NCBI GenBank assembly: GCA_038060895.1
Contig: JBBTCT010000022.1
Location: forward strand, 345,067-409,066
DNA length: 64,000 bases
Source of the DNA: Planctomycetota bacterium
Lineage (GTDB): Bacteria > Planctomycetota > MHYJ01 > WSZJ01
Direction of reading: 5' to 3'
Both the position numbers and the translations under genes were made by a program. This document shows, in pieces, positions 22,129 to 27,420 of this stretch (its first letter is position 1; each line of letters begins with the position of its first letter). The notes under the pieces are model-generated. The model searched no databases. It was not told the DNA's origin and saw only the letters and a program-made list of their open reading frames with translations.

Positions 22129-22950
22129 ATGAATCTCGCCCTCGACACGCCTCCGGTCGCAATCCCGAAAGCCGAAATCTTCCGGCTCGCGCTGGCCGGG
22201 GTGTCGAAATCGTACGGCTCTCTCACCGCGGTGAAGGACGTGTCGCTCTCAATCCGCCGCGGCGAGTTCCTGTCGCTCCTCGGGCCGAGCGGGTGTGGCA
22301 AGACGACAATCCTCCAGCTTCTCGCAGGATTCGAGAAACCAGACTCCGGGCGCGTGCTGATGGATGGCCACCCGATCTCAGGCGCCGGGCCCGATCGTCT
22401 CGTCATTTTCCAGGAACCGGCGCTCCTTCCATGGCTGACCGTCGCCGAGAACATCGGCTTCGGACTGCCGAAACACCCTCGTCCGCTGCACGACGAAACA
22501 GTCGGGCTTCTCCTGCGACTCGTGCACCTCGACCGGTTCGGGCACCTCCGGCCTCACCAGCTCTCCGGTGGCATGAAGCAACGCGCCGCCCTTGCCCGCG
22601 CACTCGCAGTCGATCCCCAGGTGCTCCTGATGGACGAACCCTTCGCTTCTCTCGACCCGCAGACGCGCGAACTTCTTCATCTTGACCTCCAGCGCCTCTG
22701 GCTCGGGTTGCACAAGACCGTCGTGTTCGTGACTCACAGCGTCGAGGAAGCGGTCCGGCTCTCCGATCGCATCGCCATCATGGCGACTCAGCCGGGGCGT
22801 ATCCGCCGCGTCCTGGACGTCAATCTGCTGCACCCGCGCGATTTCAATTCGCCCGAAGTTGCCGAGCTGCGTGCGGCCATCCGGGAAGAGATGCAGGACG
22901 AGATGACGAAGCTGGCGCGCCGCGAAGGGGACGAAGGGTGGCGTCCGTGA
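22129..22950 (+). CDS. Nitrate/sulfonate/taurine-type ABC ATPase (SsuB/TauB-like)
   Basis: GPSGCGKT, FQEPALLPWLTV, LSGGMKQR, MDEPF, VTHSVEEA. Confidence 0.92.
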   Translation: MNLALDTPPVAIPKAEIFRLALAGVSKSYGSLTAVKDVSLSIRRGEFLSLLGPSGCGKTTILQLLAGFEKPDSGRVLMDGHPISGAGPDRLVIFQEPALLPWLTVAENIGFGLPKHPRPLHDETVGLLLRLVHLDRFGHLRPHQLSGGMKQRAALARALAVDPQVLLMDEPFASLDPQTRELLHLDLQRLWLGLHKTVVFVTHSVEEAVRLSDRIAIMATQPGRIRRVLDVNLLHPRDFNSPEVAELRAAIREEMQDEMTKLARREGDEGWRP

Positions 22951-23690
22951 AACCAGAACATCTCCCGTTGTTTTTCGCGTCCGCCGCGGCCTGCCTCGTG
23001 GTTCCCGCCTCCGTCGAGGCCGCCTCCCCTTCGCCATCGGGGATCGCCCTCAACCTCGCGCACGGCTTCGCTTCCGGAGACTACTTCCTCGCCCTCGGCG
23101 CATCGGCGCTTCGCATCGCCGCCGGCTTTGCGATCGCAGCGATACTCGGCGGCGCTCTCGGAATTCTTCAGGCCGTGGTGGTCCCCGTCCGCCGCATCTG
23201 CGGTCCCCTCACCACAGGAGTCCAGGCCCTCCCGGCCGTCTGCTGGCTCCCCGTCGCGCTCCTCTGGTTCGGCCGCGGAGAGGCCGCCGTCCTCTTCTGC
23301 GTCGTCGTCGGCTCTCTTTTCGCCGTCGCCCTCGGCGTCCGCGACGGCCTCGCCCAGGTCCCGCCCCTCCTGCGCCGCGTCGGCCAGACCTTCGGCCTCT
23401 CCCGCTGGCACCAGGTCACCCGCATCACCATTCCCGCTGCACTCCCTGCCATCCTCGCCGGCCTCAAGCAGGGCTGGTCCTTCGGCTGGCGCGCCCTCAT
23501 GGCCGGCGAATTGATCTGCGCCACGGCAGGCTTGGGCCGATCGCTCACGGCCGGAAGAGAAGCCGGCGACTCCAACCAGGTGTTCGCCGTGATGCTTCTC
23601 ATCCTCTTCCTCGGCGTCGCCGTCGATCGCTTCGGGTTCGGGCTGATTGAGAAGCGGGTGCTGGCCAAGCGGGGGCTGGCGTCCGCCTGA
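22947..23690 (+). CDS. SsuC/TauC-like ABC permease
   Basis: GTGA overlap with the ATPase; 'QALPAVCWLP', 'PAALPAILAGLKQGWSFGWRALMAGE'. Confidence 0.88.
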   Translation: MKPEHLPLFFASAAACLVVPASVEAASPSPSGIALNLAHGFASGDYFLALGASALRIAAGFAIAAILGGALGILQAVVVPVRRICGPLTTGVQALPAVCWLPVALLWFGRGEAAVLFCVVVGSLFAVALGVRDGLAQVPPLLRRVGQTFGLSRWHQVTRITIPAALPAILAGLKQGWSFGWRALMAGELICATAGLGRSLTAGREAGDSNQVFAVMLLILFLGVAVDRFGFGLIEKRVLAKRGLASA

Positions 23691-23793
23691 AGCGTCACCC
23701 GAGGAGGCCAGGGGGGACTTTGTGCCCAAACGATGCGACCCACCACCGTTGTTCCTGATACTCTCTGATCTTCAAATTATCAGGAGACTCCTC

Positions 23794-24723
23794 ATGCCCC
23801 GCCCCCTGCTCGCTGCCATTTTCTTTCTCTTCGCCCCGGCCTTTGCCCTCGCCGGCGAGCCGTCCCAGGACGAGCTCAAAAAGAAGAAAGAGGAGGTCCT
23901 CAAGGATCCTTTCCTCAAGAAAGCGCCCTGGACGCTCGACTACGACAAGGCGCTGGCCGAGGCCGTGAAGACGGGGAAGCCGGTCTTCGCGTACTTCACC
24001 CGATCGTTCGCCCCCTGACCCTTCTGCAAACAGGTTGAAGGCGGCGCCTTCAGCGACAAGGGGTTCCCGGCGTTTGCGGCGAAGGTCGTGCTGTTCTGCC
24101 ACGTCACTTCGCACATCGAGAACGAGCCCAACGACAAGCTGTTCGAGCAGAAGGGCGGCGGCGGGTACCCGACGATCATGATGCTGGACGAGAAGGGCGA
24201 CATGATCGGAAAGCACTCCGGCGAAAGATCGGTCGCAGAGTTCGAGAAGACGGTCGGTAAGGCCGTCAGGTACCTCGACCTGCGGAAGAAGGCCGAGTCG
24301 GGTGACAAGGCGGCCGGAATCGACCTGGCGATCGCGAAGCTGGAGCTCGGGTCGCTCACTGCGGACGCGGCGCAGAAGCAGATCGCCGAGCTGGGCACGC
24401 CGACACCGGAGCAGCAGGCGCAGCTCGACGCCGTACTCTTGAACCAGGAGGTCATGGCGATCTCCAAGTCCGCGGGCCAGGACCGCGCTTCCGCAGGCAA
24501 GAAGTTCAGCGAGATGAAAACGGCGGGGAAAATCCCGACGGGCGCGACGGAGTACCTCACGTTCTGGGACAACATCACTGTCTACGCCGAGGCGCAGAAC
24601 GACGTGACGATGTTCGAGGAGGCGCTGGCAAAAGTCCGCGAAAAGATCGGTCAGAATCCCAGCAAGAAGAAGTACTTCGAAACGAAGGAAGCGGCGCTGA
24701 AGAAGATGAAGTCGAAGAAATAG
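23794..24723 (+). CDS. Exported thioredoxin-fold selenoprotein (U75-P-F-C78) with helical C-terminus
   Basis: RBS caggag, signal peptide, WTLDYDKALAEAVKTGKPVFAYF; TGA at 24016-24018 is in frame with PFCKQVE... and ORF 24088..24723; cis-Pro motif GYPT; downstream hairpin. Confidence 0.8.
24019..24063 (+). promoter_or_regulatory. Bacterial SECIS-like hairpin
   Basis: gttgaaggc-GGC-gccttcagc (24034-24054); the loop starts with G, 24 nt after the UGA; lower stem ccctt/aaggg. Confidence 0.7.
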
Positions 24724-24738: not shown

Positions 24739-27420
24739 CTATTTCGGCGCGAACTTCTCGACCAGCGCCGCCCAGCGGGGATCCAGGCGAAGCGGAGCCA
24801 GCTCCGAGTCGCCGGTCCACGAGCCGTCGCGGCTGACGCCGGCCTCGAGCCCGTTCTCGAGCGTGCGGAAGGCCTCGTCGGTTTTTCGCTGGCCGGCGAG
24901 GGCTCCCGCGAGCCGCAGCGTCGTCATCTGCTGGAACAGGATTCGACTGGGCATCAGGAGCTTCCCGCCTTCGGGATCGGAGGCGTCGTCGATTCTGCGC
25001 AGAACCTCCCGGTAGCCCTTCTCGGCATCAGCCCACCGCGCTTCGTCAGAAGCAGCGAAGGCGGCGGCGAGGCTGTCGCGGATGCCAGGGGTCATCGCTG
25101 CGAACTTGCGCGTCATATCGACGCCTTGCGCCATCTCGACAAGGTTGTTGGTGCGCTCGACGGGAAGCGCCTCGAATTGCTTCCGGGCGGCGCGCCGGTG
25201 CGCCGCGAACGCGGCGTCGTCTCCCGCTGCCAGGTCGAACGCCATCGCGAGGTACCAGCCCGCGCCCATTTCGGGCTCATCCCTCAGGATCCGCTCGAGG
25301 TCGTCGCGCGATTCCTTCACCGGGCGCGGCGTCCCACCGAGCACGAGGTCCTGGTAGTCCAGCGCCGCGCGGACGAGCCTGGCCCGTGTATTCCCGGGCT
25401 CGATGACCAGCACGCGCTCGACGTCCTTCAACATGCGGCTCCGGTGACGCCCCGTGCCGACGGAGGACAGGAAGACCACCATCAGCCGCTCCAGGATGGT
25501 GCGCGGCTCGTCGGGCGCGATCGAGACCGCTTCGTCCAGGTCCTCCAGCGCTTCTTTTTCGCGACCCAGCCGCAGGCGGATCTGCGCCCGCGCCATCCAG
25601 GCTTCGCGGAAATTGGGCTCCTGCTCGACGGCGATCGAAGCGTCGCTTTCCGCGCCCGCCAGGTTACGGCGCGTGGCCGCGTCGGGGCGCTCCACGCGAT
25701 TTCCCAGGCGGTACAGGGCGCGCGCGAGGAAGGCATCCGCGAACGTCGGGTCCATCGCGAGCGCTTCGGCCAGGGCGGGAAGCGGGTCGAACCCGGGCTC
25801 GAATGCGAGGCGGACCAGGGCTTCGGCGGTCAGCATGCGCGGCCGGAGGACGCCGAGATTCCGGAGTTCCGCGATGTCGGCATCGAGGAGCCTGCGCTCC
25901 TCTGCGCAGATCATCGCGAGATCCTGTGGCAGCACCACGAAGGTTCCTTCGATCGTCCGGTCCTGAACGAACATCATGCGCAGCAGGATGCGGTCGTAAC
26001 GGGCGTCTCCCAGCGCCGGGTTCAGCTCGAGCGCGCGGTCGAGGTCGGCCATCGCCTGCGGCAGGCGGTTCAGGTCGCGCAGGACGCGCGCGCGGGCGTG
26101 AAGAGCATCCGCGTGGTCCGGGAAGATCGCGAGGGCCTTGTCGAAGTTCGCGGCGGCGCTTCGCAGGATCCCCTGCCGGAGGGGCCGGTCCTCCTTGCGG
26201 CGGATCTTCCGGGCCGCTTCGTAGTCCGCGACCCCGGCGCTGAAGTCCGGCCGGGCCGCGTTGAGAAGCTCGAGGCGGTCCTGCCGGACCCCGCGTGTTC
26301 TCAGTTGCCAGGCCAGGGTCGCGGCGAGCACGAGGGCCAATGCCCCGGTCGCCGAGAGGGCCGGCCGCCGCCGGGCCCATCGCCAGGATCGCGAGAGCAC
26401 CCCCTCCCGCCGCGCGGCGACCGGTGCGCCTTCGAGGAAGCGGTCGAGGTCCTCCGCCATCGCCGTCGCGGACGCGTAACGTTTCGACTTCTGCTTCGCC
26501 ATCGCGGTCAGGCAGATCGTCTCGAGGTCCCTGGGTACGTGCGCCACGACGCGCGAGGGGGGCGACGGCTCGCGATCCTCCACGGCGCGCAGCACCGCGG
26601 CCATCGTCTCGCCCTCGAACGGCCGCTTCTTCGTCAGCACCTCGTAGAGCACCGCTCCGAGCGAGTACACGTCGCTCTGCCCGTCCACGGACCGCATTCC
26701 CGACACCTGCTCCGGCGGCATGTAGCACGCGGTCCCCATGACCTGGTCGGTCCGCGTCAGCCCCCCGTCCTCGTCCCCCGTCTTCGCGAGGCCGAAATCG
26801 GTCAGCCGAGCCGCCCCCGCGCCGTCCACCAGGACGTTCGCGGGCTTGATGTCCCGGTGCACGATTCCCTGCGCGTGCGCGACCGCCAGCGCCCGCGCCA
26901 CGTCCCGCACCATCCGCGCCGCATCCTGCGGCGCAACTCCCGGGTCGCGAAGCTGGCGGTCCAGCGCGCGCCCTTCGACGAATTCCATCGCGATGTAGTG
27001 CGCGCTCCCCTCGGCCCCGACGTCGTACACGCGGACGATCCCGGGATGATCCAGCTTCGCCGCGGCGCGCGCTTCGCGATCAAATCGCGCCAGCGTCTCC
27101 CTCGACGCATGCTCGCCCGCGATCATCACCTTCAGCGCGACAATCCGGTCGAGCGCCGTGTCGCGCGCCCGGTAGACAATCCCCATCCCGCCCGCGCCGG
27201 CCGCGGCGAGGATGTCGTAGCGCCCGATCCGCTTCGGTTGCGCGGGGACCACTCCGGGCGCAGCCGGCGGAGGCATCACCACCGTCGGGTCCGACCCCGA
27301 AGCCGCCGGAATCGCGACCGTCAGCGCGGCTTCCTCCGGCGACTTCCCGCACGCGGGACAGCGGGCAGACTCTTGCTGTCCTTCGAAGCGGTGCCCGCAG
27401 CCGGGACAGGTGACGTTCAA
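24739..27420 (-). CDS. Hanks-type Ser/Thr kinase with N-terminal zinc ribbon, TM segment and TPRs
   Basis: CPGC/CPAC; GAGGMGIVY, VALK, HRDIKPAN, DFG, MPPEQ. Confidence 0.93.
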   Translation of the reverse strand: MNVTCPGCGHRFEGQQESARCPACGKSPEEAALTVAIPAASGSDPTVVMPPPAAPGVVPAQPKRIGRYDILAAAGAGGMGIVYRARDTALDRIVALKVMIAGEHASRETLARFDREARAAAKLDHPGIVRVYDVGAEGSAHYIAMEFVEGRALDRQLRDPGVAPQDAARMVRDVARALAVAHAQGIVHRDIKPANVLVDGAGAARLTDFGLAKTGDEDGGLTRTDQVMGTACYMPPEQVSGMRSVDGQSDVYSLGAVLYEVLTKKRPFEGETMAAVLRAVEDREPSPPSRVVAHVPRDLETICLTAMAKQKSKRYASATAMAEDLDRFLEGAPVAARREGVLSRSWRWARRRPALSATGALALVLAATLAWQLRTRGVRQDRLELLNAARPDFSAGVADYEAARKIRRKEDRPLRQGILRSAAANFDKALAIFPDHADALHARARVLRDLNRLPQAMADLDRALELNPALGDARYDRILLRMMFVQDRTIEGTFVVLPQDLAMICAEERRLLDADIAELRNLGVLRPRMLTAEALVRLAFEPGFDPLPALAEALAMDPTFADAFLARALYRLGNRVERPDAATRRNLAGAESDASIAVEQEPNFREAWMARAQIRLRLGREKEALEDLDEAVSIAPDEPRTILERLMVVFLSSVGTGRHRSRMLKDVERVLVIEPGNTRARLVRAALDYQDLVLGGTPRPVKESRDDLERILRDEPEMGAGWYLAMAFDLAAGDDAAFAAHRRAARKQFEALPVERTNNLVEMAQGVDMTRKFAAMTPGIRDSLAAAFAASDEARWADAEKGYREVLRRIDDASDPEGGKLLMPSRILFQQMTTLRLAGALAGQRKTDEAFRTLENGLEAGVSRDGSWTGDSELAPLRLDPRWAALVEKFAPK

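Follow-up and report, generated by a model that had tools for sequence, protein, structure and literature searches.

A probable exported UxxC selenoprotein with a TPR-like helical domain, and its large family in Planctomycetota

In this work we analysed a window of 64,000 nucleotides (nt) from contig JBBTCT010000022.1 of an uncultured Planctomycetota bacterium (assembly GCA_038060895.1, a metagenome-assembled genome (MAG) of 5.4 Mb in 47 contigs, 86.5% complete), and found that positions 23794-24723 are best explained as one intact gene for an exported selenoprotein, in which a UGA codon is read as selenocysteine (Sec) through a selenocysteine insertion sequence (SECIS). We give this explanation as a whole a probability of roughly 0.85. 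That the gene is a real Sec gene appears nearly certain and that its product is an exported redox enzyme is likely; a reductive role fed by DsbD is put forward tentatively, at somewhat less than even odds. The Sec reading is strongly favoured because the codon in question alternates between Sec and Cys in one alignment column, a conserved hairpin follows it, the genome holds the Sec machinery, and independent contigs carry the same TGA.

The in-frame UGA and its hairpin

The features that carry the Sec reading are the following:

23794..24723, + strand: whole selenoprotein gene, 309 codons and a TAG stop with one Sec-UGA, translated with TGA as U
23782..23786, + strand: AGGAG of Shine-Dalgarno type, with 7 nt between it and the ATG, read directly in the sequence
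24016..24018, + strand: Sec-UGA, residue U75 and position 1 of U-P-F-C; the column is TGA in 94 of 99 distinct copies
24025..24027, + strand: TGC of Cys78, which would be the resolving cysteine of the UxxC pair; invariant column in a 32-sequence alignment
24034..24054, + strand: SECIS-like hairpin with a 9-bp stem and a GGC loop, coding for V-E-G-G-A-F-S; called from its fold and its positional conservation

The frame opens with the ATG at 23794 and closes with the TAG at 24721-24723, and the single TGA among its 309 amino acids (aa) lies within FTRSFAP-U-PFC-KQVE, around residue 75. Calling of open reading frames (ORFs) with Table 11 divides it into a 123-aa ORF that ends at 24018 and a 211-aa ORF at 24088-24723. 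A preliminary description of this DNA had proposed that the two are one split gene of 309 aa at 23794-24723 with a TGA at 24016-24018, and translation confirmed it.

The same description had placed a Sec codon at the first Cys of the redox motif, with position 75 as the place where homologues should carry TGA or a Cys codon, and this is what was found. When the read-through protein was searched against 61 genomes (its own and 60 relatives), full-length homologues stayed in frame across the TGA: 46 matches spanned 270 or more of the 309 residues, and exactly one in-frame TGA was present in 42 and none in 4. Thirty full-length copies from 29 loci were extracted and aligned, and the U75 column was TGA in 28 and TGC or TGT, in a C-P-A-C motif, in 2. 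A contig scan with one genome per species returned 176 stretches encoding relatives; at the 79 loci kept, TGA occurred in 82 of 85 motif occurrences and TGC in 3, a Sec share that is possibly overstated, as the search pattern ends before the Sec column but derives from a Sec-dominated alignment. Merged and deduplicated, the two sets gave 99 distinct copies (94 TGA, 4 TGC and 1 TGT), with TGA conserved in the column down to about 32% identity. The Sec/Cys pairing was also seen in the 49 CxxC forms among the best 150 of 570 family representatives.

The hairpin consists of a 5' arm gttgaaggc (24034-24042), a GGC loop (24043-24045) and a 3' arm gccttcagc (24046-24054), and its distance from the UGA to the loop is exactly 24 nt (24019-24042), so that the G-led loop 24 nt past the UGA noted earlier is indeed in the sequence. 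The bacterial SECIS (bSECIS) model, as quoted in passages of a 2026 review, calls for an apical loop of 3-9 nt, an upper stem of 4-16 bp, a G within the first two loop positions, a UGA-to-loop distance of 16-37 nt and a minimum free energy of at most -7.5 kcal/mol (PMC13188914); with a 3-nt loop, 9 bp, 24 nt and -13.5 kcal/mol, the window hairpin lies inside all the limits quoted there.

Comparison with relatives gave the decisive part of the evidence. Uninterrupted stems of 7 bp or more occurred in 76 of the 94 TGA copies, and with the limit lowered to 6 bp the count was 83, the loop always starting 23-26 nt past the UGA; the background rates for such stems, taken from 5,940 downstream coding windows of the same genes, were 5.0% and 11.4%, respectively. 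None of the 5 Cys copies has the hairpin, their longest stem being of 4 bp. We preferred this per-sequence test with its background over counts in fixed columns. GGC, GUG and GUC are the commonest loops, and 39 distinct 5' arms were found, each still complementary to its own 3' arm. Pair types switch on both sides of the stem (one pair being GC in 14 cases, UA in 11 and CG in 8), in a register-split table that is descriptive only, as its classes were picked by already having a stem. Synonymous recoding of the 12 codons after the redox motif gave -8.0 kcal/mol where the window copy has -13.5 kcal/mol (36-nt region), with 0 of 300 recodings as stable; the natural sequence was more stable than the recoding mean in 27 of 28 Sec forms and stood at 5% or less of the recodings in 17 of 28. 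A covariance model of the hairpin had one match in the window, the hairpin itself; its 90 hits mostly reflect gene homology, because the model contains coding flanks. The bacterial SECIS geometry claimed in the preliminary description is therefore upheld by the values of the model, by compensatory changes in the Sec forms and by the lack of the hairpin in the Cys forms.

The machinery that this reading implies, selABCD elsewhere in the genome, was found. The tRNA-Sec gene scored 71.7 bits (cut-off 47) and was called by ARAGORN as tRNA-SeC with anticodon tca, and selA (541 bits), selB (344 bits, summed) and selD (364 bits) completed the set, all four including selC being above curated cut-offs. 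The TGA read at 24016-24018 was also repeated in data of other origin: a DNA contig from an independent study spans 23750-24258 with 0 differences and the same TGA, and a metatranscriptomic library supplied a contig of 213 nt that spans 23909-24121, TGA and hairpin included, likewise with 0 differences. Between 24381 and 24493 no covering contig was found in four runs, which has no bearing on the gene. We thus envisage that the UGA at 24016-24018 would be read as selenocysteine during translation, the hairpin at 24034-24054 acting as a bacterial SECIS that recruits SelB with Sec-tRNA(Sec).

Two other explanations of the TGA were weighed. It could be a true stop, leaving either a pseudogene or two genes, one for a 74-aa exported peptide and another for a 211-aa protein starting at GTG 24088. 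Table 11 ORF calling yields exactly such a split, the 211-aa fragment and its relatives sit in public databases as 'hypothetical protein', and 68 of the 150 top representatives start just past the residue-75 column, which is also how TGA-split Sec forms would be expected to look. However, 94 copies with TGA at one column down to about 32% identity, together with 5 copies with Cys, are unlike pseudogenes; a stop would cut the thioredoxin fold through its active site, the position-locked hairpin occurs in the TGA forms alone, and the Sec machinery is present, so that we consider a true stop very improbable. Still less credible is a genome-wide code, of the kind of table 4 or 25, in which TGA stands for one of the standard amino acids and selenocysteine plays no part. 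Many thioredoxin-like frames of this genome do contain an in-frame TGA, but it falls exactly at the redox Cys in 18 of 18 Thioredoxin_7 cases. Moreover, the upstream permease ORF ends with TGA at 23688-23690, and homologue L033 of the selenoprotein family also has a TGA stop; since ordinary genes stop at TGA, a genome-wide reassignment is excluded, and the tRNA-Sec (tca), selA, selB and selD likewise contradict it.

Some results speak against the Sec reading or reduce the weight of its evidence. The case for Sec insertion at U75 is built on sequence comparison in an uncultured MAG. Folded by itself, the 66-nt segment 24010-24075 is unremarkable (z -1.32, 21 of 200 shuffles as good, not significant), and the SECIS case must therefore rest on the comparison with relatives. 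In eleven of the 94 TGA copies the longest uninterrupted stem falls short of 6 bp; RNAfold gave interrupted stems in most of these eleven. Pairing in fixed columns was only moderate, 80.2% against 69.7% for shuffled columns in alignment A1 and 68.4% against 62.1% in alignment A5, where a slide of +2 was higher (72.2%), a result explained by the use of two registers one nucleotide apart. The potential to form the hairpin is partly built into the conserved peptide (L/V)-E-G-G-A-L, and the RNA-library contig is compatible with transcription and does not prove it.

The stem also couples residues on its two sides, as in loci L081, L092, L103 and L109 compared with L079, L088 and L098: Leu (CUC) accompanies Ser (AGC), Phe (UUC) accompanies Asn (AAC), and Glu is GAG with Leu and GAA with Phe, the window copy being GAA/Phe. 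The peptide L/V-E-x-G-x-L/F-S is therefore partly shaped by the SECIS.

Domain architecture and probable role

Four further features describe the encoded protein:

23794..23853, + strand: putative Sec-type signal peptide, residues 1-20 (MPRPLLAAIFFLFAPAFALA), with A-L-A before G21; taken from the sequence by reading
23929..24189, + strand: Thioredoxin_7-type thioredoxin-fold domain, residues 46-132; Pfam PF13899
24169..24171, + strand: codon of Pro126 in a conserved G-[FY]-P loop; invariant column in the 32-sequence alignment
24232..24720, + strand: C-terminal all-helical domain resembling tetratricopeptide repeats (TPR), residues 147-309; eight helices in the AlphaFold2 model

A similar hydrophobic N-terminus, closed by A-x-A, was seen in all 30 aligned homologues, and residues 1-20 were modelled with a low predicted local distance difference test (pLDDT) value of 56-62. 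The model, made with AlphaFold2 from 32 sequences, has a mean pLDDT of 93.0 and a predicted TM-score (pTM) of 0.82.

The first domain matched PF13899 with 30.9 bits (cut-off 27, E 3e-7), and PF13098 (Thioredoxin_2) stayed below its cut-off with 21.4 bits (cut-off 27). Its best fold match, for residues about 42-163, is DsbH of Chlamydia (2ju5; Z 12.5, root-mean-square deviation (rmsd) 2.9 Å over 118 residues), which was also matched by sequence profile in the PDB (E 2.8e-8), followed by the exported DsbD-like 3f9u (Z 12.3), AGR3 (Z 12.0), ERdj5 (Z 11.3) and DsbD-gamma (1vrs, Z 10.4). U75, C78 and P126 are invariant columns of the 32-sequence alignment, and Pro126 is presumably the cis-proline of the thioredoxin fold.

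In the model the C-terminal region forms eight helices from residue 147 to residue 308, with pLDDT above 90 and 96.6 when folded alone. Pfam gave no match to this domain in the window copy and scattered chance matches among 29 members, a Pfam TPR model being matched in one of the 29 with E 0.18. Its best structural matches are all of TPR type, with Z of at most 8.0. For the whole model the top Foldseek matches are YbbN (CnoX) of Escherichia coli (3qou, E 6.1e-5) and its Salmonella homologue (3qdn); at a TM-score of 0.24-0.27 and an rmsd of about 20 Å, the architecture is alike and the structures do not superpose. Both the Thioredoxin_7-like nature of the protein and its long helical tail, as they had been described from the sequence, are thus borne out.

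With respect to known systems, the protein is closest in kind to the PF13098 UxxC selenoproteins of the 2026 catalogue. According to their catalogue description, on which this comparison is based, these share with it Sec in place of the first Cys of CxxC, a thioredoxin fold, Cys-form homologues, a G-led small-loop hairpin 16-37 nt past the UGA and decoding by SelA/SelB/SelC/SelD; the present protein differs in belonging to PF13899 and in its extra TPR-like domain of about 160 aa. NF041199, the NCBIfam Trx7/PDZ family, is a catalogued selenoprotein of Thioredoxin_7 type to which 16 of 32 members had weak matches; it differs, as far as its catalogue entry tells, in a CxxU motif and in a PDZ domain instead of the helical one, and the window protein scored 16.7 against its cut-off of 300. 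DsbH (2ju5) and DsbD gamma (1vrs, 2fwh) give the best sequence and fold matches, and are exported proteins of the Thioredoxin_7 group with a CxxC-type site; unlike the present protein they rely on Cys and end without a helical domain, and the NCBIfam scores were 22.7/190 and 17/330, respectively. In CnoX/YbbN (3qou, 3qdn) helices of TPR type come after the thioredoxin domain, an order that the present protein appears to share, and some members of the present family have a degenerate redox motif; CnoX/YbbN differs in having no Pfam or NCBIfam sequence match with our protein, which carries Sec and a putative signal peptide. CnoX is a cytoplasmic holdase that HOCl activates and that works together with GroEL/DnaK, and the signal-peptide-like N-terminus argues for export rather than for a location of that kind.

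These data lead us to propose that the product probably acts as a thiol-disulfide oxidoreductase of the periplasm, its helical arm serving to bind the substrate. The 20-residue putative signal peptide would be removed, and the mature form would consist of the Thioredoxin_7 domain, with U75-P-F-C78 opposite the Pro126 loop, fused to the TPR-like domain. Sec75 would attack a substrate disulfide or sulfenate, Cys78 would resolve the resulting selenenylsulfide, and the helical domain might hold the substrate or a partner, by analogy with the TPR domain of CnoX/YbbN. Recycling by the DsbD of this genome, whose gamma domain also has a UxxC motif, is plausible.

The role of a genuine selenoprotein could nevertheless be another. 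It might be an oxidase or isomerase for exported proteins, like DsbA, DsbC or protein disulfide isomerase (PDI), instead of a DsbD-fed reductase. Oxidising thioredoxin-fold proteins such as DsbA (CPHC) have a Pro directly after the first redox residue, as the present family does (U-P-F/P-C), and AGR3 and ERdj5 among the fold matches belong to the PDI family of eukaryotes; the closest relatives in sequence and fold, however, are DsbH and proteins of DsbD-gamma type, which the libraries name disulfide reductases, and we regard an oxidase or isomerase as rather unlikely. A little more doubtful still is that the core job is non-catalytic, namely binding or holding of clients by the helical domain, as in a periplasmic counterpart of CnoX/YbbN in which UxxC would be an accessory that protects or releases them. 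This fits the top Foldseek matches, the Z of 6.9 between the helical domain and 3qdn, and the 33 of 150 top representatives with SxxC, CxxS, SxxS, AxxA or similar motifs. Against it, the resemblance to YbbN is one of architecture, with Z in the range of common arrangements, and the cost of Sec in most copies argues that redox chemistry matters.

The oxidoreductase role we prefer meets objections as well. Those same 33 representatives lack a CxxC/UxxC pair, so that not all members of the family can be redox catalysts of this kind. The TPR-like assignment, at Z of 8 or less, lies under the trust line for helical repeats and may reflect just a common arrangement of helices in the model. Finally, no gene family was common to the 101 ORFs flanking family genes at 28 loci; as the neighbours vary, the context gives no functional lead.

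Family size, distribution and catalogue status

A profile search of 1.84 billion representative proteins returned 570 clusters (50% identity) at E of 1e-30 or below. Among the best 150 of the 570 representatives, 68 start just past the Sec column, 49 are full-length CxxC forms and 33 have other motifs. In public databases the fragments are called 'hypothetical protein' and one Cys form 'thioredoxin family protein'; all three named records come from Planctomycetota or Planctomycetia MAGs, and nearly all of the 79 kept loci have MAG titles of Planctomycetota type.

A FastTree tree of 149 leaves was built from the region after the hairpin, comparing verified Sec forms with CxxC forms. It requires at least 29 Sec/Cys changes (with shuffled labels 45 on average and never fewer than 36), and several small clades with support of at least 90 mix both forms. 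It is clear that Sec and Cys were switched repeatedly, even though errors in the tree inflate the change counts.

The preliminary description had suggested that the family was possibly uncatalogued, and our searches agree. The protein remained far from the whole-protein cut-offs of NCBIfam models NF041199 (Trx7/PDZ), NF041383 (VPGUxxT, 13.7/275), NF045694 (TsoB, 17.2/805), NF043050 (DsbH, its best score) and NF001419 (DsbD). The 32 members scanned had only weak matches to these five models, the best with E 1.5e-11 (DsbH), and one chance match to PRK00977 (exodeoxyribonuclease VII small subunit). The catalogue of the 2026 review has no PF13899 entry (PMC13188914); the genes may already be listed in BSepDB or by Deng et al. 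2026, cited there for a deep-Sep survey of groundwater MAGs. According to passages of that review, thioredoxin-fold UxxC selenoproteins with a coding-region SECIS are the commonest bacterial selenoprotein kind, and the nearest catalogue entries are the PF13098 UxxC 'thiol:disulfide interchange protein' and the CxxU Trx7/PDZ family; Planctomycetota are mentioned 0 times in its main text (PMC13188914). Marine planctomycete selenoproteins were reported in PMC4807772, whose passages on them do not mention the present family, and a literature search on the Planctomycetota selenoproteome found no paper. In our judgement these genes form a new and large family, as yet unannotated, of a kind that is well known, with an unusual exported architecture of Thioredoxin_7 plus TPR-like domain.

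Its recognition leaves the understanding of Sec decoding unchanged. It shows in turn how systematically selenoprotein genes are mis-annotated: every named public record of a Sec form here is a truncated 'hypothetical protein', and a family of at least 570 clusters has been invisible to functional surveys. It corrects gene models in the 176 relatives of the species scan, and the frequent switching between Sec and Cys makes the family useful for asking when selenium pays off.

Copies of the gene also occur together. The window genome (G000) has a family paralogue with 43% identity and one TGA (G000:C1:203676-204557, - strand), and tandem arrays were seen in relatives, one with four copies (three with TGA and one with none) and another with three (G025:C262:22989-26694, G002:C29:12293-15630 and L034 being such places). 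In a 484-aa homologue frame (L027:1498-2949, + strand), as well as at G011:C376:4230-4730, the helical C-terminal region occurs twice, perhaps through duplication of the TPR-like domain within the protein; similarly, several representatives of 485-509 aa have two matched stretches (P0017, P0019, P0025).

Genomic context and other selenoprotein genes

Upstream of the gene, on the same strand, lies a pair encoding an ATP-binding cassette (ABC) transporter ATPase and a permease (22129-23690, +), the permease with Pfam support; downstream and convergent is the gene of an 893-aa Ser/Thr kinase with TPR repeats (24739-27420, -). Neither the ABC pair nor the kinase arrangement recurred in any of the relatives' loci examined. 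Nothing promoter-like came out of a scan that also covered terminators, for which 3 candidate sites were marked on the minus strand where 1.9 were expected. At five loci of one related group (L029, L033, L038, L041 and L044), one of them a Cys-form locus, a gene for a Kdo/WaaP-type lipopolysaccharide kinase lies upstream on the same strand, and at two others (L040, L043) a rhodanese-domain gene precedes the family gene.

A more striking lead, and one on function, comes from the exported Thioredoxin_7 proteins, which are enriched in Sec across the whole genome. Of 23 Thioredoxin_7 (PF13899) matches in the window genome, 18 have TGA exactly at position 1 of UxxC with a hairpin after each, and the other 5 use Cys; the matches are spread over contigs C1, C2, C4, C5, C9, C12, C14, C22, C24, C34, C35, C39 and C42 of G000. 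DsbD itself looks like a selenoprotein in this genome, as judged from its sequence: in the 648-aa homologue (L129:865-2811, + strand, on G000:C14) a signal peptide and an N-terminal domain precede the DsbD_TM core, and the Thioredoxin_7 domain at the C-terminus has one in-frame TGA, in F-S-U-T-N-C; its gene is followed by one for a WCGPC thioredoxin.

These results suggest that the exported redox system of groundwater Planctomycetota is unusually rich in selenium. One could go further and suppose that these bacteria rebuilt their envelope thiol-redox network on selenium, with a UxxC DsbD feeding a set of exported Sec-containing Thioredoxin_7 proteins and the present family acting as a periplasmic Sec-dependent chaperedoxin whose TPR-like arm holds clients; this is a speculative proposal that we consider improbable in its full extent. 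Were it true, the SECIS hairpin would dictate the peptide after the active site, and amino acids would covary there for reasons of the RNA and not of the protein.

Other Sec genes of the genome were observed in passing. The selD match (L018, at G000:C2:48628-49548, - strand) has one in-frame TGA, so that the selenophosphate synthetase is probably itself a selenoprotein here. A Sec-type Thioredoxin_7 frame with D-D-U-G-A-C (G000:C4:12960-13217, - strand; L001:1501-1593) is separated by some 300 nt from the tRNA-Sec gene (C4:13533-13624), with selA on the same contig (24942-26297). Lastly, two adjacent Thioredoxin_7 frames on the minus strand (G000:C9:127495-127674 and C9:128861-129073) have two TGAs each, in R-U-V-P-U-x-S-C, and are possible double-Sec proteins.

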